Numbered from the stretch's first letter, positions 33,893 to 62,447 are shown. The stretch is DNA of 64,000 bases from an uncultured bacterium (GCA_963745865.1 CAVUYZ010000004.1:149288-213287); one strand, 5' to 3'. Program-made: numbers and translations. Notes: a model not told the origin generated them from the sequence alone.

Positions 33893-33906
33893 TGCAATCG
33901 ATTGTG
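33893..33906. promoter_or_regulatory. LacI-type palindromic operator candidate (site 1 of 7)
   Basis: TGCAATCGATTGTG lies in the divergent region between the amidohydrolase (start 33799) and the cupin (start 33940). Confidence 0.55.
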
Positions 33907-33939
33907 AAGCCGGTCCGTTCTCGGTACGCTTTGCCGTGC

Positions 33940-34315
33940 ATGCGACCGGTCATCAGATTCCAGGACCTCCCCAAGATCCGTTCGACCAGGGATGGCCGAG
34001 ATCGCGTTGACCTGGTCACCGAGGAGCTCTTCGGGATCACCGATCTCAAAGCCGATCACATCACCTATCACCCCGGCGACACTGCGGCGGCCCACTATCA
34101 CATCGGCGCCAAGCACTTCTTCTTCGTCGACTCGGGCGCAGGGCATCCTCCATCTCGGCGATGAGGTTCATCCGTTGTCGAAGGGAGATGTCGCGCTCGC
34201 CGACGACGGGGTCGTCCACTGGTTCGAGAACACCAGCGACGAGGCGTTCTCGTTCTACGAGCTGTGGGTGCCGATGCCACGTGAGACGATCTGGGTGGTG
34301 GAGGACGATCAATGA
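33940..34315 (+). CDS. cupin-domain protein; frame broken near 34135-34139
   Basis: MRPVIRFQDLPKIRSTRDG...YHPGDTAAAHYHIGAKHFFFVDSG joins GILHLGDEVHPLSKGDVALADDGVVHWFEN. Length 376 = 3n+1. The stop overlaps the next ATG (ATGA). Confidence 0.7.
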
Positions 34316-36575
34316 ACATGGGAACGAGTGACGTGAGTTCACGTCCATCGACCGCCATCAGACCGGAGGCTGGATGACCGGCCGCTCATCACCGGGACCG
34401 GTGCGTATGTCGCCGACCTGATCGATGCCGACACGCTGCACTGCGCCTTCGTGCGCAGCCCGGTCGCGCACGGTCGCATCACGTCGATCGACGTCGACAT
34501 GGCCACCGACATCGAGGGCGTTGTCGGGATCTTCACTGCCGAGGACCTTCAGATTCAGGACATCCCGGCGGTGACCGGTCGTGGCGTCGGAGCCGACTAC
34601 ATGACCCGGCCGGTGCTGGCCCGTGACAAAGTGCGCCATGTCGGGGATCCCGTGGCAGTGGTCGTCGCCGACTCGGCTCGGGCTGCCGTCGACGCCGCCG
34701 ATCTCGTGTGGCTCGACGTCGACGAGCTCCCGGCCCTCACCGACCCGGAGACTGCTGCCGACTCCGAGGTTCATCTGTTCGATGGCGGGTCCAACATCGT
34801 TGGCCGGCTCCATCTTGCCGAAGGAGCCGAGCCGGACGCTTCCGCCGGCGGTGTCGGTGACGGTGCGTGTCGAGAGTCAGCGCCTCGCCCCGATGTCGAT
34901 CGAAACGCTGGGCATCCTGGTGGATGCCACCGAGCAGACACTGCGGGTGTGGTGTGGGCATCAGGCTCCTCATCGCCTCAGGAACCAACTCTCAGCGATG
35001 CTCTCGATACCCCATGACGATGTCCGGGTGACCATCCCCTCAGTCGGCGGAGCCTTCGGGATGAAGGGCATGCTCTTTCCCGAATACCTCGTCGTCACCG
35101 AGGTGGCGCGACGGCTGGGACGCCGGGTCGCGTGGATCCAGGGTCGACGAGAGCAGTTCGTGTCGGGCACCCATGGCAGAGCCCAGCGCCATCGGGTGAC
35201 ACTCGAAGGTGACGCCGACGGTCGGATTCGGAAGGCTCACGTCGATCTTCTCGCCGACACCGGGGCATACCCGCACAACGGCTCGGCCGTGCCGATGTTC
35301 TCGCGCCTGGTTGTCACCGGGATGTACGACATCGAGCGAGTGGAAGTCGACACCACCATCGTGGTCACCAACCAGGCGCCGACCGGCTCCTATCGCGGCG
35401 CTGGACGGCCGGAGGCGGCACTGGCGATCGAGCGGGCGATCGACGCGTTCGCTCGGGAAGCGGGCCTCGACCCGCTCGACGTGAGGATGACCAACCTCAT
35501 CCGGACCCTTCCCCATCGCACGCCAACCGGCGCCGTCTACGACTCAGGGGACTACGCCGCTGCCATCCGGCGCGCCACCGAGATGATCGGCCTCGATTCG
35601 GTTCGCTCCGAGCAACAGGATCGGCTCGGTACGGGCGCCGACCCTGTCGGCTTCGGGATGGGGGCGTTCATCGAGCGAGCCGGGGGAGCGATCGAGTCCG
35701 GCGAGTATGCCAAAGTCGAGGTCACCGACGATGGGATCGTCGTCAGGACCGGCTCTACCGACACCGGCCAGGGCCACTCGACGGCGTGGACCCAGGTGGC
35801 AACGTCCATCTTCGGGGAAATTCCGGTGCAGGTGGTCGCAGGTGACACCGACGAAGTCGCAGACGGCGTTGGCTCCTTCGCGTCTCGGTCGACGCAGATC
35901 GGTGCGTCGGCGGTCCGGCGGATGTCCGAGAGTGTTCTCGAGCAGGCCAGGCAGCGGGCCGCCGACCGACTGGAGGCGGCCGTCGTCGACATCGAGTACG
36001 AGACAGGAGTCTTTCGGGTCGCGGGTGTCCCCGACAGTGGAGTGAGCTTGTTCGACCTCCTGCCGGACGGCGAGATCGCCGACGAGGAGATGTACGTCCC
36101 CGGTGCGCAGACGTTCCCGTACGGAGCACACGCGGCCGTGGTCGAGGTTTCACTCGAGACGGGCGAGGTCACGGTTCGGCACCTGGTCACCGTCGACGAC
36201 TGCGGGGTGGTCATCAACCCGATGCTCGTCGAGGGCCAACTACACGGATCGGTGGCCCAAGGGCTGGGCCAGGCACTGTTCGAGACGATCAGGTACGACG
36301 ACTCCGGACAACCCCAGACCGCCACGCTCATGGACTACATGACACCGCACGCGCCCGATTTCCCAACTCCGGAAGCCGATCACCTCGTCAGCCCTGCTCC
36401 GTCCAACCCGCTCGGAGCCAAGGGCACCGGCGAGGCCGGATGCATCGGGGTTCCCCCGGCCGTACTCAACGCCGTGCTCGACGCGTTGGCTCCCTACGGG
36501 GTGCATGATCTCCAACTTCCGCTCAGTCCGCATCGAGTGTGGACGGCGATCCAGGAGGCCCGCTCCCGTGCCTGA
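34312..36575 (+). CDS. xanthine dehydrogenase-family molybdopterin-binding subunit, form-II CoxL-like; frame broken twice (~34368-34372, ~34845-34850)
   Basis: Three segments join in order: [19 protein letters not shown], then [32 protein letters not shown]..., then ...VGGAFGMKG...[13 protein letters not shown] (an AYRGAGR-type active-site loop)...GLGQALFE...[12 protein letters not shown]. Length 2264 = 3n+2. Confidence 0.85.
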
Positions 36576-37617
36576 TGTCGAAGCAGTGGTTCGAGGGGCC
36601 GTGGTCCAGGCGGCTCCGGTGTTTCTCGACCGTGAAGCCACCGTCGAGAAGGCGATCTCCCTGATCGAAGAGGCGGGCCGGAACGGCGCCGAGATCGTCG
36701 CCTTCCCCGAAGGGTTCATTCCGGCCCATCCCGTCTGGTTCCACTTCCATTCGGGAACCGATCGACGGGGGACCGAGCTGTCCGTCGAGTTGTTCAAGAA
36801 CTCTGTCGAGGTGCCGGGGCGCGAGGTGGAGGCGCTGGCGGATGCAGCTGCGAGAGCCGGAACCTACGTCGTCATGGGGGTCTGTGAGAAGCTTCCGGGG
36901 ACCTTCGGGACGATGTACAACACCCAGGTCTTCATCGATCCCGTCCACGGGTACGTGGGGAAGCATCAGAAGCTGGTTCCAACGGTGGGTGAGCGCCTGG
37001 TGCACCGCGCCGGCGGCCCCGAGACCTTCGGAGCGTTCGACTCACCGTTCGGACGTGTGTCGGGATTGATGTGTGGAGAGAATTCGAACCCGCTGGCGAT
37101 CTTTGCGCTGACTGCCGAATCCACCCGGATCCATGTGATGGCATGGCCGAACCACTTTCCGAAGCCGGCCCTCCCGATGCCCGAAATCTCGCTGACCGCG
37201 GCGAAGGCATTCGCCCAGATGTCGAAGGCGTGGGTCCTGAGCGCATCGGCGGTCGTCGATGACCGGGTTCGAGACATGGTCGCCGCCGACGACGCCGACC
37301 GCGAGTTCCTCGCCCGGGACGACATCGGTGGTGGCTCGTGCATCGTGGCACCGGACACCCGGGTCGTCGCCGGCCCGCTGGTCGGCAACGAAGAGACCAT
37401 TCTCTACGCCGACATGGATCTCGAGGTCGGCGTCAAGATGAAGCTGCGCCACGATCTCGCCGGTCATTACAACCGGCCTGATGTGTTCAGACTGCTGGTG
37501 AACAAGGGCGCGCTCCCGCTGATGCAGTCGATGGCCGGAGATGAGTTGGCCGGACCCGGCACCCCCGCGCTCGACACCCCCGACCCGAGGATGCTGGAGC
37601 TCGGCTCGGACGACTGA
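36568..37617 (+). CDS. nitrilase-superfamily (carbon-nitrogen hydrolase) enzyme, nitrilase branch
   Basis: GTG at 36568 overlaps the coxL-like end by 8 nt. The product has VQAAPVFLDREATVEKAISLIEEAGRNGAEIVAFPEGFIP (catalytic Glu), ..KHQKLVPT (Lys) and ..GLMCGENSNPL (Cys). Confidence 0.85.
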   Translation: MPDVEAVVRGAVVQAAPVFLDREATVEKAISLIEEAGRNGAEIVAFPEGFIPAHPVWFHFHSGTDRRGTELSVELFKNSVEVPGREVEALADAAARAGTYVVMGVCEKLPGTFGTMYNTQVFIDPVHGYVGKHQKLVPTVGERLVHRAGGPETFGAFDSPFGRVSGLMCGENSNPLAIFALTAESTRIHVMAWPNHFPKPALPMPEISLTAAKAFAQMSKAWVLSASAVVDDRVRDMVAADDADREFLARDDIGGGSCIVAPDTRVVAGPLVGNEETILYADMDLEVGVKMKLRHDLAGHYNRPDVFRLLVNKGALPLMQSMAGDELAGPGTPALDTPDPRMLELGSDD

Positions 37618-37671
37618 CCGTCGGCCAGATGCGAGGCCCGGTTACGCGGTCGGTTTCGTACGATCGACCCG

Positions 37672-38892
37672 ATGGACGAGCGAATTCTGTTGGATTCTGG
37701 CGACGAGGCGCGTCCGCCCCCGGACGGGACCGGATCGCCCGCCGGCTGGTGGGTTGCGGCGGCGTTGATCGCTGCAGTCGTGATCGTCACGAGCCAGGGT
37801 GCAGACTTCGCTGTACCGGACTCGTCATTGATCGTCGAGCCGTTTTCGCCACCGACCGGCCGATGGGTGGAGACGGTCCTCGGGGAGGGCGGGTCTTTCA
37901 CGGACGTCTCACTGGTGGGGTCGAGAATGATCGCCGTCGGGTCTGGTCTGCGGGTCGACGCATCCCCGTTCGTGTGGGTCTCCGATGGCGGATCCGATTG
38001 GGTCTCGGCCTCTGGTCCCTGGCTCGGGGGAGAGGTCATCTCGGCGATCGCTCCGAACGACGAGGCGCAGATCGCCGTCGGCTACCGGCTCGTCGAGCCG
38101 TTTGCAGCGGCGGGGCCGGTTGTGACCCCGCGGGTGTGGCGGACCGACGACGGTCTCATCTGGCGAGAGGAGATGACTGTCGGCCTGCCGGCTCGTTCGT
38201 CGCTGGTGGGTCTCGAGAGCCATGAGGGTGATGTGATCGCAATCGGCTGGGAGGGACCCGGGCTCCTCGAGCCGGTGGCGCTGCCCGGTCCCGGCTCCAT
38301 CGGACGCGTGTGGAGGAGTCCCGACGGGCGGACCTGGACCGACGTGACCCCTCTCGGCGACGCCGTGCGCTTCACCGATGTCTTGTCGGCGAGGGGAGGG
38401 CTGATGGTGTCGGGGAGCTTCGAGAATGCTCCCGCGATCTGGATGGGCGGCCCGACGTGGACCAGGTCGGTGCTGCCCGGGGACGAGTGGGATGGTTGCG
38501 AAGTGGTCGCCGTTGCTGATGACGACTCCGGGTTGGTCGCGATCGTGAGACGGAGCCTGGACCCCGGGGGTGTGTTGTCTGTATGGAAGATCGACGGCGC
38601 TGGAGAGTGGGAACTGCTGAATCGATCAGGTTCGCCATCGTCATCGGGGTGGATGGGAGCGATCGGAGGCGACCTCTTCACCGGGGCACCCTTCACCAGG
38701 TCGGTGTATGGAGCGGGACCGGAGTTGTGGGTATCGGACGATGGTGATGAGTGGTTCGGGGTCGAGATCACCGGTGGCGTGTCGCCCTGGCCTCCTGCCG
38801 CCGTGACACGGATCGTCCGTGCGTCCGACGGTCTCGTGGCATTCGGATCACGCGGTGCCGCACCGACGGTGTGGACGCTGTCCGGCAGCTGA
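37672..38892 (+). CDS. membrane-anchored protein with Asp-box/BNR-like beta-propeller repeats
   Basis: An N-terminal TM helix (WWVAAALIAAVVIVT) is followed by recurring W-x-S/T-x-D-G-x-x-W blades: VWVSDGGSDW, VWRTDDGLIW, VWRSPDGRTW and LWVSDDGDEW. Confidence 0.45.
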   Translation: MDERILLDSGDEARPPPDGTGSPAGWWVAAALIAAVVIVTSQGADFAVPDSSLIVEPFSPPTGRWVETVLGEGGSFTDVSLVGSRMIAVGSGLRVDASPFVWVSDGGSDWVSASGPWLGGEVISAIAPNDEAQIAVGYRLVEPFAAAGPVVTPRVWRTDDGLIWREEMTVGLPARSSLVGLESHEGDVIAIGWEGPGLLEPVALPGPGSIGRVWRSPDGRTWTDVTPLGDAVRFTDVLSARGGLMVSGSFENAPAIWMGGPTWTRSVLPGDEWDGCEVVAVADDDSGLVAIVRRSLDPGGVLSVWKIDGAGEWELLNRSGSPSSSGWMGAIGGDLFTGAPFTRSVYGAGPELWVSDDGDEWFGVEITGGVSPWPPAAVTRIVRASDGLVAFGSRGAAPTVWTLSGS

Positions 38893-38960: not shown

Positions 38961-38974
38961 TACAAACGATTGCA
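38961..38974. promoter_or_regulatory. LacI-type palindromic operator candidate (site 2 of 7)
   Basis: TACAAACGATTGCA lies about 40 bp upstream of the EamA ATG. Confidence 0.45.
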
Positions 38975-39009: not shown

Positions 39010-39892
39010 ATGACGGGGATAGCGCTGGCAGTGACCGCCGGGATCGGGTTCGGGCTGTTTCAGGCGGTGAACCGCCGGGCCAACCAGAGCATCGACGCAT
39101 ATCTAGCTACGTTCGGCCTCCTGTTCGTTGGAACGGCAGCCCTTTCAGTAGTTGTTGCTCTCACACAGGACCTAGGAGAGCTCGCATCCGCACCGATCTC
39201 TTCACTCTTCCTGTTCGCTGCCGCGGGGATAATCCACTTCTACTTCGGTTGGACGTTTCTCACACTCAGCCAACAACATGTCGGGGCATCTCGCACGGGT
39301 GCCACCGCTGCCTCTGCCCCCCTGATCGGTAGCGTCCTGGCGTCATTCGCGCTGGATGAACGACTGGGTTGGGTTACTGGAGCGGGAGTGGTGCTCGTGG
39401 TGGCCGGTGTTGCTTCCCTTTCACTACGGGAGTTCCAAGTCTTCGGCTGTTGGAGGCAGAGGTACTGTTCCGTGGTATGGAATCGGAGCCGCGACGGTTT
39501 GGGGAACAAGCCCACTGTTCATCAGGTGGGGGTTGGAGGGACTCGACTCACCGCTGCTCGGTGTGACGGTTGGGATCAGCGCCGCCACGGTCGCGTACGG
39601 GATCTCTCTAGTCGTGACTCGTCGCTGGCGGTTGGGGATTCGAGCCCCCCTCTCTAGCATTGGATGGCTTGGGCTTGCCGGGCTGCTCGTCGCAGCGGCG
39701 ATAGCGTTCCAGTGGGCCTCATTCGATGCAATCACCGTTGCCGTGGCGATCACACTGCATCAACTTGCAGCGCCCGTTGTCATCCTGGTGGCGCCGCTGG
39801 TCGTAGGGCGTGAAATGGAGCCAATCACGCCGGCTCTCGTAATTGGCGCCGGACTCGTCATGTCGGGATCGATCCTCGTCATCCTCGCCTAA
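39010..39892 (+). CDS. EamA/DMT-family transporter; frame broken between ~39425 and 39470
   Basis: The first half (MTGIALAVTAGIGFGLFQAVNRRA...) joins the second EamA repeat (..WYGIGAATVWGTSPLFIRWGLEG...LVMSGSILVILA). Length 883 = 3n+1. Codon usage looks less GC-rich than in neighbouring genes. Confidence 0.7.
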
Positions 39893-39922
39893 GCGGAGAT
39901 CCTCGATCTCCGGTACCAATGA

Positions 39923-39952
39923 GAAAGGGCCCGCCGATCGGCGGGCCCTTTC
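39923..39952. terminator. bidirectional terminator hairpin between convergent genes
   Basis: gaaagggcccgcc-gatc-ggcgggccctttc is a 13-bp perfect stem with A/T-rich flanks on both sides. Confidence 0.7.
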
Positions 39953-39972
39953 TGCCGTTTCGTGTCTTCGCC

Positions 39973-41164
39973 TCAGAGAGACTCGACGTTCTCCGAGCCG
40001 GAGCTGAGGTCGGCCGACGGATTGATGTCCAATCCGAGTGCCGTCTGTGCGACATGCAGGCCCGACACGTCGAAGTAGCCTGCGCCACCTGTCGTTGATG
40101 TCCGGTGCGACGTTCCCGAAGGGGATGACGAACTCCATGAGCCGGTCCATCTCTGCCGGGTCGAAGCCGAGGTCCTGCGTCATCGTCCGGTTGTCGATCT
40201 GGTACACGGCGTCGTCGAAGAACGCATCCGGAAGATCGATCTCGAACTCCTCCGACAGGATCCGGGTCAGATCGTCGAAGTTGTTGGGATCCTTCACCCA
40301 CCGCTGCGCATTGATGTAGGCGTACGCCCATGCAGCAGGGAAGTCGGGATCCGCATCGATGGCTTCCTGGGTCATCGCGAACCCGAACTGCGGAAGGGGG
40401 AGGAAGTCGTTGTACAACGCGCTTCCACCGGCTTCGACTGCGAGCGGGATGTGGCGGGCGAATGCGATGGTCGCATCGATCTGCCCGGTCAGCATGGCCT
40501 GCACCCAGTCGTTGGATCCACCGGTCATCTCCGTCGCGATGACGTCGTTGGCCGGGTCGAGCCCGAGATCTTCGAGCATGTACTTGGCGAACGCCTCGTT
40601 GACGCCACCCGCACGGCCGGTGCCCACCCGCTTGCCGCGGAGGTCGTCGGCTGTGGTGATGCCCTCATTGGCGATGAGGATCAGCGCCTGGGAGCCGAGG
40701 TTGATGTTGAGCATCTTGGCATCGAGGACGTCCTTGTCGATCGCATCGAACAGGACGTCCGAGTCGAAGCCGGCGATCTTGTAGTCGCCCGCGACCATCG
40801 GCACAACCGGGTCATCGGCGTCGTTGACCTCGAAGCCCCTGATCCCCACTTCTTCGAAGAAGCCGAGTTCCTCGGACTGTCCGATGAACAGCGGCGACCG
40901 GAGCATCCGGTTCGGGTTGTTGTACCCGACCGTGAACCCGGTGGCGTCGACCTGAGGAATGCTGGATCCAGCAGTGGTCTCTGGCGCCATGGTCGTAGCG
41001 CTGCCCCCACCGCCCGCTGTCGTAGCGGGAGCCGCCGTTGTCGTCGTTGCAGCGTCATCGGTGCCACAGGCTCCGAGCGCGACCGCGCCGACCGCCAGGC
41101 CGCCCATTCCGAGGAAGCGTCGTCGGGAAATTCCCCCGCTCTGCTCTAGTTCAGATTTGCTCAT
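39973..41164 (-). CDS. NitT/TauT-family (NMT1/SsuA-like) ABC substrate-binding lipoprotein with Tat signal; frame broken near 40087-40093
   Basis: It starts with the Tat signal and lipobox MSKSELEQSGGISRRRFLGMGGLAVGAVALGAC. After ...FGNVAPDIND the true C-terminus, GGAGYFDVSGLHVAQTALGLDINPSADLSSGSENVESL*, is in the +1 frame. Length 1192 = 3n+1. Confidence 0.75.
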
Positions 41165-41189
41165 TGGGTTTCTCTCTCCCTATGTCTCG

Positions 41190-42101
41190 TCAGGCCTTAC
41201 TGGCCTGTCTCCACGGTGCGATCTTCGATTCCATCGATCGCGTTCCCTGCACCAACACCAAGGCGAAAATCGCGAGACTCACCAAGGCGGCGTATGTGAG
41301 GGCACCATTGAATCCGCGCGCTGCGCGGAAAATCAGCCAGCCGAGGCCACCGTCCTTGCTGGCTCCCGTCAGGAACTCAGCGATGACGACACCGACCAGC
41401 CCGCGACTGAGGGCGAGCTGGACTCCGGTGACCACGAACGGAAGCGTGTAGGGCAGAACCACCTTCTGGTAGAGCTCGCGGCGGCTCGCGCCGAACACTC
41501 GTGCGGCGTTGATCAGGGATTGCTCGGTCGTCTTGACTCCTGCCCAGGTGTTGATGATCACCGGGAAGATGGCAGTTGCGATCACGAGGGCGTATTTGAT
41601 CTCGTCTCCGAGGCCCATGAAGAGCACCAACACCGGGAAGATGGCGATCCTCGGGAGCGACGACAGCGTCCAGACATACGGGCTCAGGATGGCGTCTGCC
41701 CACTTGCTGCCGCCCATCATCAGGCCGATGGGGATACCGACCACGATCGAGATGGCGAGGCCGACCGCATACACCTGGAACGTCACCATGAAGTTCTTGG
41801 CGATGACGAAGTTCTGCAGCAGGTCGAAGGTGTTGTTGGAGTCGCCCCCGCCGCCCAACCAGCCGATCTTGAGGGCGGATGCCATGTCAGTGAACTTGGG
41901 GATGAAGGCCGGCTGGTCGTACCAGCTGGCGAAGATCTGCCACAGAATGGCGAAAATCGTGAGGTTGATGAGCGTGATCACCGCGTACCGGCTCCGTCGC
42001 CAGATCCGCTCCGCGGTCCACTCCGCATCGCGCAGTCGAGGCGACGATGAGATCGCCGCGTCTTCGGTTCCCTTGCTCGACGCTGTCACCTGATCGGTCA
42101 C
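41190..42101 (-). CDS. NitT/TauT-family ABC permease
   Basis: GTG at 42101 overlaps the ATPase stop (GTGA). The BPD-type permease core includes ...GASRRELYQKVVLPYTLPFVVTGVQLAL.... Confidence 0.8.
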   Translation of the reverse strand: MTDQVTASSKGTEDAAISSSPRLRDAEWTAERIWRRSRYAVITLINLTIFAILWQIFASWYDQPAFIPKFTDMASALKIGWLGGGGDSNNTFDLLQNFVIAKNFMVTFQVYAVGLAISIVVGIPIGLMMGGSKWADAILSPYVWTLSSLPRIAIFPVLVLFMGLGDEIKYALVIATAIFPVIINTWAGVKTTEQSLINAARVFGASRRELYQKVVLPYTLPFVVTGVQLALSRGLVGVVIAEFLTGASKDGGLGWLIFRAARGFNGALTYAALVSLAIFALVLVQGTRSMESKIAPWRQASKA

Positions 42102-42952: not shown

Positions 42953-42966
42953 CGCAATCGTTTGCA
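42953..42966. promoter_or_regulatory. LacI-type palindromic operator candidate (site 3 of 7)
   Basis: CGCAATCGTTTGCA lies about 25 bp upstream of the ABC ATPase start, in a relatively AT-rich leader. Confidence 0.5.
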
Positions 42967-53357: not shown

Positions 53358-54725
53358 TTACTCGGCGGCAGGGGATCCTGGCAGTTCGTTCAGAACGCAG
53401 GCGGCGACGTGCCCCTCGCCCCGAGCGGTGAGCAGCACCTCGTCGACCGGTGTGAAACGAATCGTGACCTTCCGTTCAGTGACCTCGAGCGTCTCGAGCG
53501 CTTGCTTCATCGGGCCAGGCACCGGTCCGGTTCGCACGGCCTCGGCCAAGGCCTGGGCTGACGCCTCGTCCTCGAAACCGAGTGTTCCGGAGAATTCATC
53601 GGTCCGCTCGACGTCCTCGATGGTGTCGAACAACCCTTCCTGATCCTGGAGCCAGCGGACGACATCGTCGAGTTCCCACCCGCAGACGGGTGTCGCAACC
53701 GGGCACCGCGTATGGAAGCGGCATCCCTGCGGGGGGCGTGCCGGGTCGGGGACGGTGCCTTCGAGGGGGCGCATCGGGAGATCGGCATCGTCAGAAATGT
53801 CGGGGCTGGCGGCGAGCAGCGCCTCGGTGTACGGATGATTGGGATGCTCGAAAATGTCAGCGGTTGCTCCGGCCTCGGCCACCTTTCCAAGGTACATGAC
53901 CACGATCTGATCGGCCATGTGCCGCACCACCGAGAGGTCGTGTGTGATGAAGAGATACGTGAGGTTTCGTTCGTCCTGCAGATCGTGCAGGAGGTTCAAG
54001 ATCTGCGCCTGGACCGAGACGTCGAGGGCGCTCGTCGGCTCATCCAGGACGACCATCTCGGGATCGAGAGCGAGGGCTCTGGCGATCGAGATGCGTTGCC
54101 GCTGGCCACCGGAGAATTGATGCGGGTACCGGTAGAGGTGTTGACGGCCAAGGCCGACCTGTTCCAACAACGCGACGACCCGGTCGGTCAGTTCGCTGCC
54201 CGATGCCTCCTTGTAGACCCGGAGGGGCCGGCCGACGATGTCCTTGATGAGCTGTCGCGGGTTGAGTGAGGAGAACGAGTCCTGGAACACGACCTGGCAG
54301 TTGCGTCGGTATCGTCGCCACTGCTCACCCTCGAGACGATCGACTCGATGAACACGGTCGAGTTCGCTCAGCTCCGCCCGCTGCTCTTCGGTGCGCGACG
54401 ACTCGGGGACCGAGAGAAGGGCGTCGAGCCGATCGCGCTCACGTCCGGCGAGATCGAAGAAGACTCCGCCCCCTGTTGGATCCATGAGCCCTGACAGACA
54501 ACGCCCGAGCGTCGTCTTCCCGCATCCGCTCTCGCCGACGAGCCCGACGGTTTGACCGCGCCGGATGTCGAAACTGACCCCGTCCACCGCCTTCACGCTC
54601 CCCACGACCCGTTGGAGGGCACCCTCGCGAATCGGGAAGTGCTTCTCGAGGCCTCTGACGGCCATGACGATCTCGCCCGGGTCCGATGCCTCACGTGGTC
54701 CGGTGGATGTGGCGGCGATCGTCAT
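53358..54725 (-). CDS. Opp/Dpp-type ABC ATPase (OppF-like) with internal insertion and ~100-aa C-terminal extension
   Basis: Walker A GESGCGKTT, signature FSGGQRQRISIARAL, Walker B LDEPTSALD and the oligopeptide C-terminal Cys motif CRFHTRCP..C. A further ~100 residues follow that motif. Confidence 0.85.
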   Translation of the reverse strand: MTIAATSTGPREASDPGEIVMAVRGLEKHFPIREGALQRVVGSVKAVDGVSFDIRRGQTVGLVGESGCGKTTLGRCLSGLMDPTGGGVFFDLAGRERDRLDALLSVPESSRTEEQRAELSELDRVHRVDRLEGEQWRRYRRNCQVVFQDSFSSLNPRQLIKDIVGRPLRVYKEASGSELTDRVVALLEQVGLGRQHLYRYPHQFSGGQRQRISIARALALDPEMVVLDEPTSALDVSVQAQILNLLHDLQDERNLTYLFITHDLSVVRHMADQIVVMYLGKVAEAGATADIFEHPNHPYTEALLAASPDISDDADLPMRPLEGTVPDPARPPQGCRFHTRCPVATPVCGWELDDVVRWLQDQEGLFDTIEDVERTDEFSGTLGFEDEASAQALAEAVRTGPVPGPMKQALETLEVTERKVTIRFTPVDEVLLTARGEGHVAACVLNELPGSPAAE

Positions 54726-56044
54726 GTTGTGCTCCGTGAATACGAGGGGGACTCGCCGTCGAAGCCCGTCGGCGGGTGATGAATGAAACAGGAGACGGGG
54801 TGGGAGACGTTTTCGTTGGAGAGCCGGGGGTCGGTGGTCTCACATACTGCAGTGCTGTGATTGCAGCGTCCGGCGAACCGGCATGACGGTTGTGGATCGA
54901 TCAGCTCGGGAACGGTTCCCTCGATGACGACGAGCCGGCCGCGTTTGTGCTGGGCGGACGGGACTGCGGCCAGCAACCCTCTCGTGTAGGGATGGAGTGG
55001 GTCGTCGAAGATCTGATTGGTTGGGCCGACCTCGGCGATCCGACCGGCATACATCACGGCGACCCGGTCACAGACGCGCCGGACGAGGGAGAGATCGTGG
55101 CTGATGTAGAGCACCGCGGTCTGATGGCGTCCCTGGAGCTCTCTGATCAGCTCGAGGATTCGGGCCTGCACGGTCACATCGAGCGCCGTCGTCGGTTCGT
55201 CGGCGATCAGCAGATCGGGGTTGCAGGCCAGCGCCTGGGCGATCATCACGCGCTGGCGCATTCCGCCTGACAACTCGTGGGGGTAACGCTCCATCACCTT
55301 GAGCGGGTTGGGGATCTGCGTCTCGGCGAGGGCATCGATCACCATCTCGTCGACGGCTTGATCGATCCGGTTGCGCCTCGAGCGCATTGGGGGGAGGGCG
55401 AGGGCCATCCGTTCGGGTATCCGAGAGTGGCGCGCGGCCCAGCGATGGAGCAGTGCCCCGGTGTCGTACGGGTCCATGCCGGCTCGAGTCAGGATCTCGG
55501 CCTCGCGGTGCTCATAGAACACCTCTCCGACCTGGTCGCGGATCGACATCGCAGGATTCAGCGCCTTGGCCGGATCCTGGAAGATCATGGCGATTCGATT
55601 GCCGCGGATGTCTCGGAGTCGCTTCTCTGGGATCGATGTCAGGTCGATGGTCTCGTCGCCCGTCTGGTCGCAGACGGCGCACCCTGCCCCAACGCAGTTG
55701 CTGCATGCCACAGCCTGTCGACCGCTGTTCGAACAGGTCGAGCAGCCGGAACCTGCGCAGTTGGAGCACGCTTCCTTCGGTCGGAAGAGGACCGAGCCGC
55801 CGACGTGCATGCCAGGAGGCATCGGGACGAGCCGGAGGAACGACCTCGCTGTCACGCTCTTGCCGCAACCCGTCTCCCCGACGAGACCAAGTGTCTCTCC
55901 GTCCTTGATGTCGAACGAGACGCCGTCGACGGCGTGGACGATTCCCTCCTTCGATCCGAAGTGGACCCTGAGGTCGACGACCGATGCGATTGCGTCGTTC
56001 GTCGCCGTTGGGGTGATTGCGTCGCTGGGTCCGGTCAATGTCAT
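54722..56044 (-). CDS. Opp/Dpp-type ABC ATPase (OppD-like) carrying a Cys-rich zinc-finger-like insertion
   Basis: From MTLTGPSD. It has [32 protein letters not shown] and a C-terminal CRFAGRC..C. Both of its ends share ATGA overlaps with the neighbouring genes. Confidence 0.85.
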
Positions 56045-56970
56045 CGCTTCGACTCCGTCCGGGGATCGAGAATGTCCCGGAGGCCGTCGCCCACGAGATT
56101 GAATGCGAGTGCCCATATGAACACCATCGCACCGGGGAAGGTGGATGCCCACCATCGGCCGGCGGAGATCCCTGCCTGTCCCTCCGACACGAGTACGCCC
56201 CATTCGGCGAGTCCTGCCTCGGCGAGGCCGATGAAGCTCAGGGTGGCGCCCACCAGGACGATGTGGCCCATGTCGAGCGTGGCTTGCACGACGACCGGAG
56301 TGACCGAGTTGGGCAGGATGTCTTTGAAGTAGATGCGCCAGCTCGAGTCGCCGACGGCGCGCGCCGCGTCGACGTACTCGTTCTGTTTGACGTGGATGAT
56401 CTGCGCTCGCATGATCCGGGCGTATTTGACCCAAAAGACCACCGCCAGAGCGAGGATGATGTTTCCGAACGACGGGCCGAGGACTGCTGCGATCGCCAGG
56501 GCAAAGATGAGCTCGGGGATCGACAGGAACACGTCGACGACGCGCATGAGGATCTCGTCGAACTTGCCGCCACGGAACCCTGCGACGCTGCCGACGGCGA
56601 CTCCGACGATGACGGTTATCCCGACGACGATGAGCGACAGGCGCAGAGACGTTCGAGCCCCCCAGATCACTCCGTAGAGCACGTCGCCGCCGTTGCCGGT
56701 GGTACCGAGCGGGTGCCCGGGCGTGCCGGGTGGAGCGTTGAGCGCTCCCCAGTCTCTGGGCATCTGGTAGGCGTCCGGCGTGTTCGCCTCGGCGATCAGC
56801 GGAGCGAACGCCGCCATGGCGAGCATCGCACAGATGAGGACGACTCCGGCGGCGGTGGTCGGGTTGGACATGATGTTGGCTGCGAGCTCACGTGCTCGTC
56901 GCAGCCTGGTCTGCAATGCCGACTCGGGTGCCGGCGCTACTCGCGGGAGTGGGCGTGTTGTATCAACCAT
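56041..56970 (-). CDS. Opp/Dpp-type ABC permease (OppC/DppC-like)
   Basis: 309 aa containing ..GTTGNGGDVLYGVIWGARTSL...EYVDAARAVG.... Confidence 0.85.
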   Translation of the reverse strand: MVDTTRPLPRVAPAPESALQTRLRRARELAANIMSNPTTAAGVVLICAMLAMAAFAPLIAEANTPDAYQMPRDWGALNAPPGTPGHPLGTTGNGGDVLYGVIWGARTSLRLSLIVVGITVIVGVAVGSVAGFRGGKFDEILMRVVDVFLSIPELIFALAIAAVLGPSFGNIILALAVVFWVKYARIMRAQIIHVKQNEYVDAARAVGDSSWRIYFKDILPNSVTPVVVQATLDMGHIVLVGATLSFIGLAEAGLAEWGVLVSEGQAGISAGRWWASTFPGAMVFIWALAFNLVGDGLRDILDPRTESKR

Positions 56971-56973
56971 GGT

Positions 56974-57987
56974 TCAGACTCCCAGGACGACTCGGCGGTC
57001 GAGATAGGCGTACATGACGTCGACAGCGAGGTTGACGAAGAGGAACAGGATGCTCGTGAACATGACGTAGGCCATGATCGTCGCCTGGTCGCCGCGGAGG
57101 ACGGCGTCGGCCATCCATCGCCCCATTCCGGGCCATCGGAAGATGATCTCGGCGACCACCGTTCCCTGGAGGAGGAATCCGAACGTCAGTCCGATCACCG
57201 TGACCGTCGGCATGAGTGCGTTGCGCCGGGCGTGTCGACGGAGGACGATGCGCTCGGGCAGGCCCTTGGCTCGCGCCGCATCGACGTACTCCTCCTGGAG
57301 TTCTTCGACCAGCGAGGATCGCATCATCCTCGTGATGATCGCTGTGGCCCCATAGCCCATCGTGAGTGCCGGGAGGGCCAGATGCCACACGGCGTCCACG
57401 AATGCTCGCCAGTTGCCGGCGAGGATCGAATCGATGGTGTAGAGGCCGGTGGGGTGGGCGATGGTCTGGAAGATGTCGGCGTCACTTCTGCCGATCGGGA
57501 ACCATCCCAGGTAAACCCAGAAAACGATGAGCATGAGAATCGCAAACCAGAACAGCGGCATGCTCGCACCGCTGATCGAGAATATTCGGGTGAAGTGATC
57601 GGGGAACCGGTTGCGTCTCGCCCCAGCAAATGTCCCGAGCGCGATACCCATTGTGACGGCGACGATCCCCGAGGCGACGGCGAGCTCCATCGTCGCGGCC
57701 AGCTTCGTCGGGAACACCTCGGTCACTGGAGCAGCGGCGACACCGGACCATCCGAGATCGCCTTGCAGCACGCCGCCCGCCCAGTAGACGTACTGGACGG
57801 GGAGTGGGTCGTTGAGATGGAACCGCTCCTCCAGTTCGGCTACCTCCCCGGCATCCATCTCGTGCGACAGGTAGATGCCGATGGGAGACCCGCCGATACG
57901 GGTCAGTGTGAACACCACGATCGACGTGCCGACGACGAGGAGCGGTAGGACCATCAGCCGTCTGAGTACGTAGTCCTTGATCTGCAT
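56974..57987 (-). CDS. Opp/Dpp-type ABC permease (OppB/DppB-like)
   Basis: From MQIKDYVLRRLMVLPLLVVGTSIVVF, with ...EYVDAARAKGLPERIVLRRHARRNAL.... Confidence 0.85.
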   Translation of the reverse strand: MQIKDYVLRRLMVLPLLVVGTSIVVFTLTRIGGSPIGIYLSHEMDAGEVAELEERFHLNDPLPVQYVYWAGGVLQGDLGWSGVAAAPVTEVFPTKLAATMELAVASGIVAVTMGIALGTFAGARRNRFPDHFTRIFSISGASMPLFWFAILMLIVFWVYLGWFPIGRSDADIFQTIAHPTGLYTIDSILAGNWRAFVDAVWHLALPALTMGYGATAIITRMMRSSLVEELQEEYVDAARAKGLPERIVLRRHARRNALMPTVTVIGLTFGFLLQGTVVAEIIFRWPGMGRWMADAVLRGDQATIMAYVMFTSILFLFVNLAVDVMYAYLDRRVVLGV

Positions 57988-58077
57988 GGTTTTGAGACGT
58001 CCGTTCGATTCGGTGGCGCGTGGTGTGGTCGGGCAATGGGGCGCCCTGGTGGCAGGGCGCCCCACTGCGGTCGCGGT

Positions 58078-59853
58078 CTACTTGTCGAAGAGGCTGAACT
58101 TCATGTTCGGCCGTGGCCACAGGGTGTTGACCGTGAAGCCGTCGACCCACTCACGATGGGCGTTGGCCACCCCTTCCTGTGCGGCGATGATCCACATCGG
58201 ATCCTCGTACAGCAGGCCCTGCAACTCCGAGTAGAGGGCCTCTCTGGTTGGGACGTCGATCTCGACCTTCGCCTGATCGATGAGCGAGGCGATCCGGTCG
58301 GGATCGCGATAGCCCTGGGCGAACCCGTGGACCTGGCCCCACTCACCGTCGGGGTGCTGATATGCCTGCATGAAGGCATGGGGGTCGGCGAACGGATCTG
58401 CGTTCTTCACCCACATCGCATAGGGCACCGGATCGGAGGCGTGGGCGTCGTCGAACTGTGCCTCTGCAACGGCCAGCACTCGGATCTCGAAGTTCGGGTT
58501 CAGCCGTTCGATCGAGTCCTTCAGCACCAGTGCTGCGGTCTCGAACAGGTTGGCAGCCTCGGTGATCACCGAGACGGTGAAGCCTTCGTCCCAGACGCCG
58601 GCTTCACGGAACAGCTCTTCGGCTCGTGCCGGATCGGCTTGGGTGTACTTGGGTGCGTCTTCGTCGTACCCGAAGATCCCCTGAGGGATGTAGTGCGAGT
58701 TGAAGTCGCCGACACCGCCGAGCGCGCCATTGAGGAACGCTTCGTAGTCGAAGGCGTGGTTGAACGCCTGGCGGATGAGGGGATCATGGAAGAAGTCGCC
58801 GGAGATCGTGTCTTCCGGGGGAAGCTGATCTTCCGGGACGTTCAGATTGAAGCCAATGTGAATCGGCTCGACCAGCAGACCGCCGGTGAAGACGGTCACT
58901 CCGTCGGCGTCGGTGAGATCGCCGATCAGTGACGGATCGGTCTCGATCATGTCGAAGTCACCGGCTCGGAGACCGAGGATGCGGACGTCCGGGTCCTGGA
59001 CGATCTCGATTCTGAGGTCGAGCGCCGGAGCGCCACCCCAGTAGTCGTCGTTGGCGGTGAAGATGAGGTTCTCGTTGCGGTTCCAGGTGTCGAACACGTA
59101 CGGTCCGGTTCCGATGGGCGTCGTCGCCATGAACTCGTTCCGCTCACCGTCGGCGAAACCACCGTTGGCCTCGACGACTTCGTCGCTCACGACGGAGGAC
59201 ACCATCTGGGTCACGACCGAGTTGAGGAACGCGGCGTTCCGCTCCTTGAGTGTGACGGAGAACGTGAAGTCGTCGACGACTTCCATGGTGTCGATGTTCT
59301 CGATGAGGATCTCAGAGCTCGATCCTGGGAGGTCGGAGGTCATGATCCGGTCCCACGAATAGAACACGTCGTTGGCATCGAGGGTGCTGCCGTCGTGGAA
59401 GGTGACGCCTTCGCGAATCGGGAAGGTGTACGTCAGGCCGTCCTCGGAAATGAGGCCATTGTCGTCAGTCGGTACTTCGGTGGAGAGGCTCGGCACGAGA
59501 TCGGGGCCGTCTGGCCCGAAGTCGACCAGCCGGTCGTAGACCTGAAGGATGACTGCTTCGCCGTATTCGCCGGCCTCGACCTCTGCGGGGTCGAGCGAGA
59601 GTGGTTCGTCGTCTGCGGCGAATACGAACACGCCAGGATTGTTCACCTCGGCGTCGCCGTCGGTCGGCTCGGTCGTGTCCGGGTCGCCGTCATCGCCGTC
59701 GCCGCCGGCAGCGGTCGTCTCGGTTCCGTCGGACGGGGTGGTCGTGTCGGTGCCCTCGTTGTCGGCGGATGTGCACGCTGTTGCGATCATCGTCAGCGCG
59801 ACGAGCATCGCCAACCAGCGCCACGGCCGGGCGGGGGTCTTCATTGGTTTCAT
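58078..59853 (-). CDS. family-5 (peptide/nickel) ABC substrate-binding lipoprotein
   Basis: ATG at 59853 follows ggaggagga. The product has the lipobox MKPMKTPARPWRWLAMLVALTMIATAC, an acidic linker and an SBP_bac_5-like body. Confidence 0.85.
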   Translation of the reverse strand: MKPMKTPARPWRWLAMLVALTMIATACTSADNEGTDTTTPSDGTETTAAGGDGDDGDPDTTEPTDGDAEVNNPGVFVFAADDEPLSLDPAEVEAGEYGEAVILQVYDRLVDFGPDGPDLVPSLSTEVPTDDNGLISEDGLTYTFPIREGVTFHDGSTLDANDVFYSWDRIMTSDLPGSSSEILIENIDTMEVVDDFTFSVTLKERNAAFLNSVVTQMVSSVVSDEVVEANGGFADGERNEFMATTPIGTGPYVFDTWNRNENLIFTANDDYWGGAPALDLRIEIVQDPDVRILGLRAGDFDMIETDPSLIGDLTDADGVTVFTGGLLVEPIHIGFNLNVPEDQLPPEDTISGDFFHDPLIRQAFNHAFDYEAFLNGALGGVGDFNSHYIPQGIFGYDEDAPKYTQADPARAEELFREAGVWDEGFTVSVITEAANLFETAALVLKDSIERLNPNFEIRVLAVAEAQFDDAHASDPVPYAMWVKNADPFADPHAFMQAYQHPDGEWGQVHGFAQGYRDPDRIASLIDQAKVEIDVPTREALYSELQGLLYEDPMWIIAAQEGVANAHREWVDGFTVNTLWPRPNMKFSLFDK

Positions 59854-59889: not shown

Positions 59890-59905
59890 GTGCAATCGAT
59901 TGCAC
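59890..59905. promoter_or_regulatory. LacI-type palindromic operator candidate (site 6 of 7, perfect 16-bp palindrome)
   Basis: GTGCAATCGATTGCAC lies about 40 bp upstream of the SBP ATG. A degenerate copy, tgcatgcgattgtc, is at 59873..59886. Confidence 0.6.
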
Positions 59906-60026: not shown

Positions 60027-60879
60027 TCAGGGAGCGGAGGGGCGTTCCACCGGCATCCCCACCATCGATCCCCATTCGGTCCACGAGCCGTCGTAGACAC
60101 GCACATTCTTGCGGTTGGACAGCCGGGTCAGGGCAAACCAACCAAGCGAGGCTCGATGCGACAGCCGGCAATAGGTGACGACGTCGCTGTCGTCGTCTGC
60201 ACCGATCGACTCGAACGCCGACTCGAGCTCCTCGGGTCCGAGGAACGTCCCGTCGGGCGCCAAGAGGCGATCGTGCGGCAGGTGGCGCGCCCCGGGGATG
60301 TGCCCGGCTCGCTCGGCGCCATGGTCATAGGGTGCCGTCGTCGGAGCGACCCGCTCGCCGGCGAACTCCTCAGCCGAGCGGAGGTCGACGATGACGCGCT
60401 TCGCATCTCCCAGCCCGGCCAGCACGTCATCGCGCCCGACCCGGCCATCCTGCACCGGGCGACCTGGATTCGGGCCGGAGCGAGGGCTCCACCGTTGTCG
60501 GGTCGAGCGTCAGGCGCCGTCCCTGCTCGGTCCATGTGGCGTGGCCGCCGTCCAGCACCACCACCTGGTCCTCGAAGCCGGTCAGCGCGAGCACCCAATA
60601 GGCATAGGTGGCGAATTGGATGGGGTCTCCGATCAACACGATCGTCGAGTGGTCATCCGCTCCGAACGCGCCGAGTCTCCGTGACATCTCGTCTGGCTCG
60701 GGAAACTGGCGGTCGGTGTCGTCCCAGCACAGGTCCTTCCAGTAGACGTAGTGGGACCCGGGAACATGCCCTTCGAACCACGCAGCCTTCGATGGCGGGT
60801 AGAAGGAGACGTCGAGAACGACGAGGTCTTCTTCGCCAAGCCGATGCTCGAGCCAGTCGCCGTCGACGAGCGCAGTCAT
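60027..60879 (-). CDS. two-domain rhodanese (thiosulfate/3-mercaptopyruvate sulfurtransferase-like); frame broken near 60465-60490
   Basis: MTALVDGDWLEHRLGEEDLVVLDVS...GHVPGSHYV (inactive domain) joins ...VIVDLRSAEEF..GHIPGARHLP...VVTYCRLSHRAS (active-site Cys loop). The ATG overlaps the OsmC stop (ATGA). Length 853 = 3n+1. Confidence 0.8.
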
Positions 60880-61274
60880 CGAGCGACCCGGAACGTGACG
60901 TCCACGTCGGGCGGGATCTCCAGGGTGCGTCCGATCTTGCACGACGAGGCGACCCGCTCGAGCGAGGCTCGCTGGCGATCGGTCGCGTCTGCACCCACCT
61001 CCATGGTCACGGTGATCCGTCCGATCCGCTTCGGGGTCTTGGCTTCGTCGGCGTCGACATCCATGTCGATGCTCGTGACCGGGATGTCCTGATCCATCGC
61101 GAAGTTGAGCATGGTCCCTGCCATGCAGGAGGCCAGCCCGGCCAGCAGGAGTTCCGTCGGTCTGAACCCGTCACCGGGTCCGCCCGCCTCGACCGTGTCG
61201 TCGACGATCACGTCGACTCCTCGTGCCGAGATCTTGAAGCGCCTGCCTTCGATCTGTTCCAGATGTACCTGCAC
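60876..61274 (-). CDS. OsmC-family protein (both Cys present)
   Basis: GTG at 61274 follows aggag plus 5 nt. The product reads VQVHLEQIEGRRFKISARG...FRPTELLLAGLASCMAGT...RVASSCKIGRTL. Confidence 0.7.
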   Translation of the reverse strand: MQVHLEQIEGRRFKISARGVDVIVDDTVEAGGPGDGFRPTELLLAGLASCMAGTMLNFAMDQDIPVTSIDMDVDADEAKTPKRIGRITVTMEVGADATDRQRASLERVASSCKIGRTLEIPPDVDVTFRVAR

Positions 61275-61284
61275 GTTTGCTCCT

Positions 61285-62409
61285 TCAGCGATACTTGAGG
61301 CCGGTGCCCGTGTTGAACACAACGACCCGATCGTCCTCGCCGATCCAGCCCGATGCCCGGAGCCGGCGGGTCGCAGCCCACACGGCGCCGCCCTCGGGGC
61401 AGACGTCCACGCCGGAACTCGCCGCCAGGGCAGCCGTCTGCTCCAGCATCTCCTCTTCCGGTATGGCGATGGCCGTTCCTCCGGTCTCCCTGACCGCTCG
61501 GAGGCACAGGAAGCCTCCGATCGGGCCGGGCACCCGCAAGCCGTACGCGGTGGTGTGGGCGTTCTCCCACGTCTCCGTGGTGTCGGCACCCGCCTCGAAT
61601 GCCTTGACGATGGGCGCGCACCCGGCGGTCTGCACCGAGACCAGCCTCGGTCGCTCGGGACCGATCCAGCCCATCTGCTCCATCTCGTTCCACGCCTTCC
61701 ACATCCCCACGAGGCCGGTTCCGCCTCCGGTCGGGTAGACGACGACCTCCGGCATGTTCCCGTCGAACTGCTCGTACAGCTCGTACCCCATCGTCTTCTT
61801 CCCCTCGACCCGGTAGGGCTCCTTCATGGTCGAGACGTCGAAGTCGTTCGGGCCGCGATTGGCGGCGAGCCACTTGCCCGCGTCCGAGATCGTGCCAGGA
61901 ACCAGGTTGACGTCGGCCCCGTAGTGTCGGCACTCGTCGACGAATGCCTTCGGGGTGTCTTCGGGCATCGCCACGACGACCGGCATGCCGGCCGAGGCGC
62001 CATAGGCCGAGAGGGCGCTGGCTGCGTTCCCGGCGGAAGGGGCGACCAGACGCTCAGCTCCGAGCTCACGGGCTGCTGACACGGCCATCGACATCCCTCG
62101 CGCCTTGAAGGATCCGGTTGGATTCCGGGCCTCGTCCTTGATCCATGTCTGATCGTCGACGGAGATGAGGGGCGTCCACCCCTCGACGAGGGTGACCGCG
62201 TCCGCGATGTCCACCGGGAGCACCGCCGAATACCGCCACATCGAGGCGACGGCGCCGTCGATGATGTCGGCCGGGGCTCCGTCGGGGAGGCGAACGTCGG
62301 CGCGGAGCGGTAGACCGCACTCCTCGCACAGGGTGGTCAGTCGCCCGGGATCCATGGTGTGTCCGCAGGCGAAACAGGTGAGTGTGTCTGTGTTCTGTGT
62401 GATGGACAT
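61285..62409 (-). CDS. threonine synthase-family PLP enzyme with N-terminal Cys4 zinc-ribbon
   Basis: MSITQNTDTLTCFACGHTMDPGRLTTLCEECG...DEARNPTGSFKARGMSMAV (the PLP lysine)...YPTGGGTGLVG.... Confidence 0.75.
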   Translation of the reverse strand: MSITQNTDTLTCFACGHTMDPGRLTTLCEECGLPLRADVRLPDGAPADIIDGAVASMWRYSAVLPVDIADAVTLVEGWTPLISVDDQTWIKDEARNPTGSFKARGMSMAVSAARELGAERLVAPSAGNAASALSAYGASAGMPVVVAMPEDTPKAFVDECRHYGADVNLVPGTISDAGKWLAANRGPNDFDVSTMKEPYRVEGKKTMGYELYEQFDGNMPEVVVYPTGGGTGLVGMWKAWNEMEQMGWIGPERPRLVSVQTAGCAPIVKAFEAGADTTETWENAHTTAYGLRVPGPIGGFLCLRAVRETGGTAIAIPEEEMLEQTAALAASSGVDVCPEGGAVWAATRRLRASGWIGEDDRVVVFNTGTGLKYR

Positions 62410-62433
62410 ATCTGTCGAAGATAGTGGGTGATC

Positions 62434-62447
62434 TGCAATCGATTGCC
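62434..62447. promoter_or_regulatory. LacI-type palindromic operator candidate (site 7 of 7)
   Basis: TGCAATCGATTGCC lies in the divergent region between the thrC-like gene (start 62409) and the ADH (start 62492). Confidence 0.55.

Follow-up and report, generated by a model that had tools for sequence, protein, structure and literature searches.

Seven CG-centered palindromes upstream of unrelated operons in an uncultured Acidimicrobiia genome are probable operators of one LacI-family regulator

A palindrome with a central CG recurs seven times in the non-coding DNA of a 64,000-nucleotide stretch from an uncultured bacterium (GCA_963745865.1, CAVUYZ010000004.1:149288-213287), which as a whole is called the window below. 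The seven copies precede up to ten predicted transcription units with at least 29 genes of unrelated functions, and we consider it probable that they are operators of a single dimeric LacI-family factor, which belongs to the group of orthologs containing P0121 and P0123 and is encoded outside the window. A preliminary description of this DNA had proposed that LacI-family operators join these unrelated operons in one regulon; the proposal is now supported by the conservation of the sites in related genomes, by their intergenic bias and by a group of LacI-family proteins that appear to be autoregulated.

All seven palindromic 14-mers of the preliminary description, found again by a sequence search of the window, are present exactly at the coordinates given there, including the perfect 16-mer at 59890-59905 that contains site 6 (Table 1). 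All seven are non-coding and lie 21–133 nt from start codons, which were set by ribosome-binding sites or N-terminal homology. The earlier estimates (25–100 bp for six sites and about 140 bp for the site at 48193) were thus essentially right, the closest site being that at 42953, and three sites (33893, 46765 and 62434) do lie between divergent genes. The pattern GCAANCGNTTGC with at most one mismatch has nine matches in the window versus 1.56 expected, and none of 100 shuffles reached this number. The two additional matches, at 6145 and 57603, have mismatches in the conserved arms, score less than 9 bits on the weight matrix and are situated within long open reading frames (ORFs).

This 18-nt symmetric weight matrix was built from 43 sites in the window and 12 related loci, and its extended consensus is CcTGCAATCGATTGCAgG. 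The profile is an inverted repeat of even length within the range of 14–22 bp expected of LacI/GalR operators, and the central CG, also expected of their consensus, is present in 86 of 86 symmetrized counts. The matrix yields seven matches with 15.9–25.7 bits in the window, where the next best match has 11.6 bits; positions 1–33 kb contain nothing above the latter value, in agreement with the earlier statement that the motif is absent from this part. In 1.36 Mb of unrelated, mostly high-GC genomes, used as the background, three matches of at least 15 bits were found, that is, about 0.14 per 64 kb. Reconstructed LacI-family operators are even palindromes with a central CG pair (1173 of 1303 motifs), located mostly 30–140 nt upstream of start codons (PMC4052901).

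The window stems from a metagenome-assembled genome of Acidimicrobiia. Its ThrC-like protein is 100% identical to the database protein P0001, and the ThrC relatives with 65–92% identity come from Acidimicrobiia in every named case. The comparison of intergenic and coding hits suggested in the preliminary description was run on called genes of eight related loci (161 kb) with a cut-off of at least 15 bits. Thirty one of the 32 strong sites were intergenic, while intergenic regions constitute 6.7% of this DNA, and the remaining site falls within the first 20 codons of a gene whose start was probably called too far upstream; this is not the distribution of a dispersed repeat. The loci had been picked via regulon genes, and the density of sites per genome is not to be extrapolated from them. 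The sites mostly lie 9–130 nt upstream of a start codon, with a maximum of 166 nt for the Amidohydro_1 gene in L081; in the window and the related loci alike, the location is that of LacI-family operators, which are found mostly at 30–140 nt and rarely in coding sequence.

Conservation of the sites, another check proposed at the outset, was observed at the promoters between the alcohol dehydrogenase (ADH) and thrC genes and at the opp binding-protein, Amidohydro_1, EamA and HIBADH/LigB promoters. The site upstream of thrC is kept in seven loci (L081, L085, L086, L089, L090, L095 and L096), including four metagenome contigs with ThrC at least 74% identical, which retain it just upstream of this gene. 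The opp-type site upstream of SBP_bac_5 is conserved in L081, L085 and L132; EamA genes linked to a site, alone or behind an FrsA-like gene, are found in L085, L126, L129, L132 and L135; sites linked to FrsA-like genes and to 2-hydroxyacid dehydrogenase (2-Hacid_dh) genes recur in both L085 and L086; and the OsmC-LigBA-HIBADH gene set of the window occurs in L086 with sites at 15823 and 20200. The same gene families are present in these loci in differing arrangements, with the palindrome travelling with them, and the membership of the regulon in related genomes is plastic.

Neither LacI nor any other helix-turn-helix Pfam domain was found in the window, and TBLASTN with LacI, PurR and CcpA as queries found no LacI homolog there; the earlier remark that positions 22–64 kb encode no LacI-family or other regulator holds, since no helix-turn-helix Pfam match occurs in this part. 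The sole regulator-like gene of the window, encoding a BTAD/TPR (SARP- or AfsR-like) protein (19745-21475, plus strand), is unrelated to the palindrome. The same TBLASTN search across the first Acidimicrobiia loci retrieved a single LacI gene, L101:1351-2382, whereas L129, read later, contains further LacI paralogs, with four LacI-family genes within 21 kb. Three sites flank the L101 regulator gene. One, GCAAACGATTGT, directly follows its stop codon and precedes a CMD-like gene; the weaker ACAATCGATTGG (13.9 bits) belongs to the divergent promoter of the regulator gene itself, about 50 nt ahead of the gene; and the third is in the spacer between divergent GRDB and FrsA-like genes.

The orthologous LacI-family group, represented by P0121, P0123, P0124, P0139, P0197 and P0266, comprises more than 120 clusters with 60–88% identity, all named ones coming from Acidimicrobiia. 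The regulator combines PF00356 with PF13377/PF00532, that is, HTH_LacI with Peripla_BP, in six related genomes (L101, L126, L129, L132, L134 and L135). A LacI-family gene with its own site, which the preliminary description had recommended looking for, was found in all six: each has a site ahead of this gene or of its operon, one of the sites being weak, so that the ortholog and the palindrome co-occur in the manner of an autoregulated LacI-family factor. None of the three checks carried out on related genomes (intergenic bias, conservation and regulator) thus contradicted the proposal. The sites in the regulator's own promoter are 42, 42, 61 and 117 nt upstream of its start in L126, L134, L135 and L132, respectively, and in L129 a site precedes an EamA-LacI gene pair. 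For comparison, 72% of LacI-family factors are autoregulated (PMC4052901).

The regulator is also surrounded by other promoters with sites, namely CMD-OsmC; HIBADH-like and LutABC (divergent); FAA hydrolase and Pyr_redox_3 (divergent); FrsA-like-EamA and GRDB-like (divergent); and luciferase-like and a Liv-type ABC transporter (divergent). The L126 regulator and the L081 thrC gene are on one 210-kb scaffold, about 32 kb apart. The DNA-reading head of the orthologs is nearly invariant ('VHxSTASRALN...YRPHPLARGLRTN', in longer form TLxDVAREAGVHxSTASRALN...LGYRPHPLARGLRTN), and their hinge-helix leucine presumably occupies the position of PurR Leu54. Neighboring LacI paralogs are only 31–38% identical and have a different helix.

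Proteins of the P0123 type align over the full length with the structures of RbsR, CcpA, LacI and PurR (E-values of 1e-36 to 1e-40), and all their NCBIfam scores are far below the respective equivalog cutoffs, with P0123 reaching 210 versus 382 bits for RbsR, 184 versus 436 for CytR, 178 versus 501 for PurR, 161 versus 442 for CcpA, and 141 versus 385 for Cra. Judged by its sequence, the regulator is a member of the LacI family outside the characterized subgroups. The regulon resembles that of PurR in Escherichia coli and related Gammaproteobacteria in that the operator is an even palindrome with a central CG, many operons are involved, the targets are not sugar-centered, and control is predicted to be by repression. 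The half-site, which we take to be closest to the PurR box of E. coli, is at the window site 48193 (CGCAAACGATTGCG) almost the same as in the PurR consensus, ACGCAAACGTTTGCGT. The regulator, however, reaches only 177–181 bits against the PurR cutoff of 501 and is about 30% identical to PurR, and its predicted targets are catabolic, transport and redox operons in Acidimicrobiia and not purine biosynthesis genes.

With CcpA of Firmicutes, whose cre consensus is roughly TGWAANCGNTNWCA, the system shares the protein family, numerous CG-centered palindromes of 14–16 bp, diverse catabolic and transport operons, and a global range. It differs in the score of the regulator (161–166 bits versus the CcpA equivalog cutoff of 442), in showing no sign of HPr-Ser-P, the corepressor that CcpA requires, and in the almost exclusive location of the sites in promoters, whereas cre sites are often within coding regions. 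The regulons of PckR, GapR and GluR in Alphaproteobacteria and of Cra/FruR in Enterobacteria are similar in their global size and in being inferred from a palindrome and an orthologous factor, but they are centered on glycolysis and gluconeogenesis, whereas no obvious central-carbohydrate targets occur in the loci seen here. RbsR, CytR and UriR provide the best NCBIfam and PDB matches (RbsR, 210 bits) and have the same HTH_LacI and Peripla_BP architecture; yet the scores are far under the equivalog cutoffs, the predicted targets include no ribose or nucleoside genes, and the regulon is much larger.

About 90% of the reconstructed LacI-family regulons are local and concern sugars, local regulators typically controlling one or two operons; some 10% are global, the global regulators being CcpA, PurR, Cra, PckR, GapR and GluR (PMC4052901). 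As predicted from the sites, the window alone would qualify the present regulon as global according to Ravcheev et al. 2014 (PMC4052901), who ask for more than 15 target genes in at least seven operons and for control of several pathways. Our literature search retrieved the motif string only in unrelated primers and constructs and found no paper on a LacI regulon in Acidimicrobiia.

The position of the sites relative to putative promoters was analyzed using alignments of the ADH–thrC spacers from eight loci. In most of them a -10-like TANNNT hexamer is located 6–8 nt before the thrC ATG; it is TATCTT in five of the eight (the window, L081, L085, L090 and L096) and a different hexamer in L086 and L089. 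On the opposite side, five related loci have a TACGAT-type hexamer 7 nt ahead of the ADH start codon, where the window has GATACT. The proximity of these hexamers to the starts suggests that the thrC and ADH mRNAs are leaderless; leaderless mRNAs are common in Actinobacteria. In the window, 11 nt separate the operator from the thrC -10 hexamer downstream of it, so the operator covers the -35 region. At the cupin promoter the right half of site 1, TTGTGA, is itself a -35 candidate 17 nt upstream of TACGCT. The candidate promoters of the NMT1-type ABC operon (TTGAAA-17-TAGCTT) and the opp operon (TTGAGT-17-TATGGT) end 6 and 7 nt upstream of the respective operators, which places the latter at about +1.

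We infer that the palindromes are bound by protein and that the source genome encodes an ortholog of the P0123 group. One helix-turn-helix would read each half-site, and the hinge helices would enter the DNA at the central CG, in the mode known from other members of the LacI family. Since several sites overlap the -35 region or directly follow the -10 hexamer, the bound protein would most likely block RNA polymerase and cause repression, which a small-molecule effector at the periplasmic-binding-protein-like domain would relieve by releasing the repressor. In related genomes the regulator would also control its own gene; here, the sites 42–61 nt from its start, together with the promoter geometry, suggest a classical arrangement for negative autoregulation. 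The predicted regulon would include ABC transporters for peptides and of the Liv and NMT1 types, exporters of the EamA and MFS families, extradiol ring cleavage and hydroxy-acid or aromatic catabolism, amidohydrolases, several OsmC-type redox proteins, and the ThrC-like-OsmC-rhodanese operon.

Global LacI-family regulators are often dual, and at certain promoters the same protein might activate transcription or exert dual control in the manner of CcpA and Cra, instead of simply repressing. We consider this unlikely, though it deserves more weight than the other alternatives. Some sites are indeed far upstream of their genes (133 nt for OsmC-LigBA, 83–93 nt for the first ADH and Amidohydro_1, and the 166 nt in L081), and the site at the second ADH of the window is about 32 nt upstream of the -10-like hexamer, beyond the normal -35 position; but at thrC, cupin, NMT1-type ABC and opp the site overlaps the -35 or the start-site region, and the autoregulatory sites fit negative autoregulation.

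Slightly less likely still is that the palindromes are real operators read by another protein, either a LacI-family paralog with a similar helix or a regulator of a different family. Several LacI paralogs are present in Acidimicrobiia genomes, as in the 21-kb region of L129, where the paralog at L129:5015-6025 has a similar helix, 'VHPSTVSRALN', is flanked by the related weaker palindromes TCAAACGTTTGC and GCAAACGCTTGT, and could read similar sites. In addition, the source genome was read within the 64-kb window, where its regulator gene was not seen, and none of the best 120 matches of P0123 is located on the 668,965-bp contig that encodes P0001. On the other hand, only the P0121/P0123 group has a site at its own gene or operon in six of six genomes and is situated amid target operons; a constant motif goes with a DNA-reading head that hardly varies within this group; and LacI-family operators are characteristically even palindromes centered on CG.

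That the palindromes are non-regulatory (a dispersed repeat, a methylation- or restriction-related motif, or an RNA hairpin) is very improbable, and these candidates were rejected: although the copies are short palindromes, several of them with an ATCGAT core, the center varies (AATCGATT, AAACGATT, AACCGATT, AATCGTTT) and does not require ATCGAT, all window sites and 31 of the 32 related ones are intergenic and promoter-proximal, sites are retained at orthologous promoters across rearrangements, no flanking repeat structure is seen, the thrC/ADH site is upstream of the likely transcription start, a loopless palindrome makes no useful hairpin, and Rfam finds no RNA family in the window.

Apart from the L129 paralog and the unseen regulator gene of the source genome, several observations weigh against assigning the palindromes to one LacI-family repressor. 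The control of thrC is not universal: no site was found near thrC in L092–L094, where ThrC is 74–75% identical and the gene context is different, the ADH–thrC spacer of L091 contains none, and the nearest site in L101 is about 700 nt upstream of thrC. Likewise, there are no sites near thrC in loci with ThrC 61–69% identical to that of the window (GC content of 70–75%). No orthologous locus was retrieved for the sites at 42953 and 46765, hence these have no comparative support, and the latter, with 15.9 bits, is the lowest-scoring of the seven. In the genome collection, the matches to the CoA-transferase of the window reach at most 42% identity; they are distant paralogs from unrelated phyla, and their 80 loci were used as a background set. 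A strict sigma-70 scan around the sites gave no promoters, and the geometry described above is derived from TTGNNN-17-TANNNT matches under relaxed criteria and from -10-like hexamers that recur in the alignments. Finally, the regulon is defined by sites, conservation and geometry, binding and expression being predictions from sequence.

With these reservations, operators of one LacI-family factor of the P0121/P0123 group remain our preferred explanation of the palindromes. An MFS transporter gene adjoins the regulator gene, on the same strand in L126, L134 and L135 and convergent in L132. Because of this neighbor and of the many targets in hydroxy-acid and aromatic catabolism, we speculate that the effector is an organic acid. 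More tentatively than for the operators themselves, the regulator could be an undescribed pleiotropic, non-sugar-centered LacI-family repressor of an uncultured Acidimicrobiia clade, with a non-carbohydrate effector such as an organic acid imported by the MFS transporter. Such a regulon would unite the uptake of peptides, amino acids and NMT1-type substrates, exporters, the catabolism of hydroxy acids and by aromatic ring cleavage, the ThrC-like-OsmC-rhodanese operon and several redox proteins of the OsmC/CMD type that act on thiols and apparently also on selenols.

Table 1. Candidate operators and their predicted target genes in the window, and sites or neighboring genes in related loci (positions are those of the window unless a locus is named).
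Feature	Position	Strand	Context	Score, distance or evidence
Operator site 1, TGCAATCGATTGTG	33893..33906	.	between divergent Amidohydro_1 / cupin	24.0 bits; 93 nt to Amidohydro_1 GTG, 85 nt to cupin ATG
Operator site 2, TACAAACGATTGCA	38961..38974	.	upstream of EamA	25.7 bits; 35 nt to EamA ATG at 39010
Operator site 3, CGCAATCGTTTGCA	42953..42966	.	upstream of NMT1-type ABC transporter operon	24.2 bits; 21 nt to ATPase GTG at 42931 (ribosome-binding site GGAGG)
Operator site 4, CGCAACCGATTGCA	46765..46778	.	between divergent ADH-OsmC-CoA-transferase-Amidohydro_2 / OMT-DLH	15.9 bits; 83 nt to ADH ATG (46681), 65 nt to OMT ATG (46844)
Operator site 5, CGCAAACGATTGCG	48193..48206	.	upstream of OsmC(TGA)-LigB-LigA-HIBADH-cupin-FAA hydrolase operon	19.2 bits; 133 nt to ATG at 48340
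Operator site 6, TGCAATCGATTGCA	59891..59904	.	upstream of opp-type ABC operon	22.3 bits; 37 nt to binding-protein ATG at 59853
Operator site 7, TGCAATCGATTGCC	62434..62447	.	between divergent thrC-like-OsmC-rhodanese / ADH	25.6 bits; 24 nt to thrC ATG, 44 nt to ADH ATG
Amidohydro_1 gene	32438..33799	-	possibly on into Liv-type ABC transporter and RidA down to 27055	Pfam
Cupin, molybdopterin-binding subunit (CoxL-like), CN_hydrolase, 406-aa protein of no family	33992..38892	+		Pfam
EamA transporter	39010..39892	+	frameshift-split in assembly	Pfam
NMT1-type ABC transporter (ATPase, permease, binding protein)	39719..42931	-		Pfam
ADH, OsmC, family III CoA-transferase, Amidohydro_2	43041..46681	-		Pfam
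O-methyltransferase (OMT) and dienelactone hydrolase (DLH)	46844..48172	+		Pfam
OsmC-like (in-frame TGA), LigB, LigA, HIBADH-like, cupin, FAA hydrolase	48340..52032	+		Pfam
opp-type ABC transporter (SBP_bac_5, two permeases, two ATPases)	53358..59853	-		Pfam
ThrC-like PLP enzyme with zinc ribbon, OsmC, tandem rhodanese	60027..62409	-		Pfam, NCBIfam
Zinc-type alcohol dehydrogenase (second ADH)	62492..63532	+		Pfam
L081			sites upstream of Amidohydro_1, the opp binding-protein gene and in the 71-bp spacer between ADH and thrC	ThrC 79% identical
L085			sites upstream of 2-hydroxyacid dehydrogenase operon, between ADH and thrC, upstream of opp, between GRDB and FrsA-like	ThrC 74% identical
L086			sites upstream of 2-Hacid_dh, between ADH and thrC, upstream of HIBADH-cupin-FAA hydrolase and of FrsA-like operon containing OsmC-LigB	ThrC 75% identical
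Conserved 196-aa protein and LVIVD-repeat protein	L126/L134/L135 9302-9909, 8142-9319; L132 8684-9790			

The gene content of the operons listed in the preliminary description, with up to ten transcription units, was confirmed by Pfam. In L081 the Amidohydro_1 gene overlaps the BPD_transp_2 gene downstream of it, and in the window the MFS_3 gene at 52061-53290 may belong behind the opp-type ABC operon. Many genes of the window are broken up, with their parts in neighboring or overlapping ORFs of different frames: TreS-Mak (415-3688), a Liv-type permease (27524-28628), an ABC ATPase (29410-30064), EamA (39010-39892), ADH (45649-46681) and the tandem rhodanese (60027-60942). Their homologs are intact in the related loci, and the splitting in the window reflects pseudogenes or else a (long-read) assembly prone to errors. 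Genes of glycogen and trehalose metabolism (TreS-Mak, GlgE, GH57, alpha-amylase-family genes and GlgB) form a cluster at 415-14396 on the minus strand, where the weight-matrix scan found no operator copy. Four ORFs of the window (17654-19480, 21498-22043, 22183-22683 and 37672-38892) have no Pfam or NCBIfam match.

Around the regulator gene, the conserved 196-aa protein and the LVIVD-repeat protein (Table 1) are always divergent from it and share its operator. Another CG-centered palindrome pair, GTAACCGGTTTC and GAAACCGGTTAC, is found in L129 at 18235-18258, between a LacI paralog and a GFO_IDH-TauE-AP_endonuc_2 operon.

The OsmC-like gene at the head of the LigBA operon (48340-48804, plus strand) contains an in-frame TGA at 48535-48537, which stands where the first conserved cysteine of the OsmC family is expected (...LVAAAGG-TGA-LTGTFGG...KCPVARS...). 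A homolog from another genome, in L086 (17625-18110, minus strand), carries TGA at this very codon, flanked by conserved protein sequence, and the product looks like a selenocysteine-containing OsmC-like protein. A clear selenocysteine insertion sequence (SECIS) was not found, the RNA fold downstream of the TGA codon being no more stable than those of shuffled sequences (z = 0.62). An ORF at the right end (63536-63853, minus strand), cut by the window edge, has a weak NCBIfam match to 'YciW-related (seleno)protein'. CMD/AhpD-like genes, often with OsmC behind them, are recurrent operator targets in L101, L126, L132, L134 and L135, and the regulon seems to be rich in thiol or selenol redox proteins.

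The 'threonine synthase' of the window scores above the NCBIfam PRK08197 cutoff and has an N-terminal zinc ribbon (CFACGH...CEECG). In several genomes (among the window, L081, L085, L086, L089 and L101) OsmC and a tandem rhodanese come directly after the ThrC-like gene; in some, an MFS_3 exporter gene follows. ThrC homologs with sulfur chemistry, for example MetM, have reportedly been misannotated as threonine synthase (bioRxiv 10.1101/2024.10.14.618325). The reaction that the ThrC-like enzyme really catalyzes may merit a test.

In summary, we predict a repressor regulon of conventional type but large size in an uncultured lineage of Actinobacteria. Conserved, not centered on sugars and comprising at least ten operons, it offers an entry point to gene regulation in the class Acidimicrobiia, our knowledge of which comes mostly from metagenomes. 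Poorly annotated genes, such as those of OsmC/CMD paralogs, the ThrC-like enzyme with its rhodanese, FrsA-like hydrolases and GRDB-like proteins, are joined in one set predicted to be co-regulated. The 18-bp operator (CCTGCAATCGATTGCAGG) and the candidate protein can be tested in vitro without cultivation. If the pleiotropic, non-sugar reading is true, the regulator would represent a new physiological type among the handful of global LacI-family regulators.

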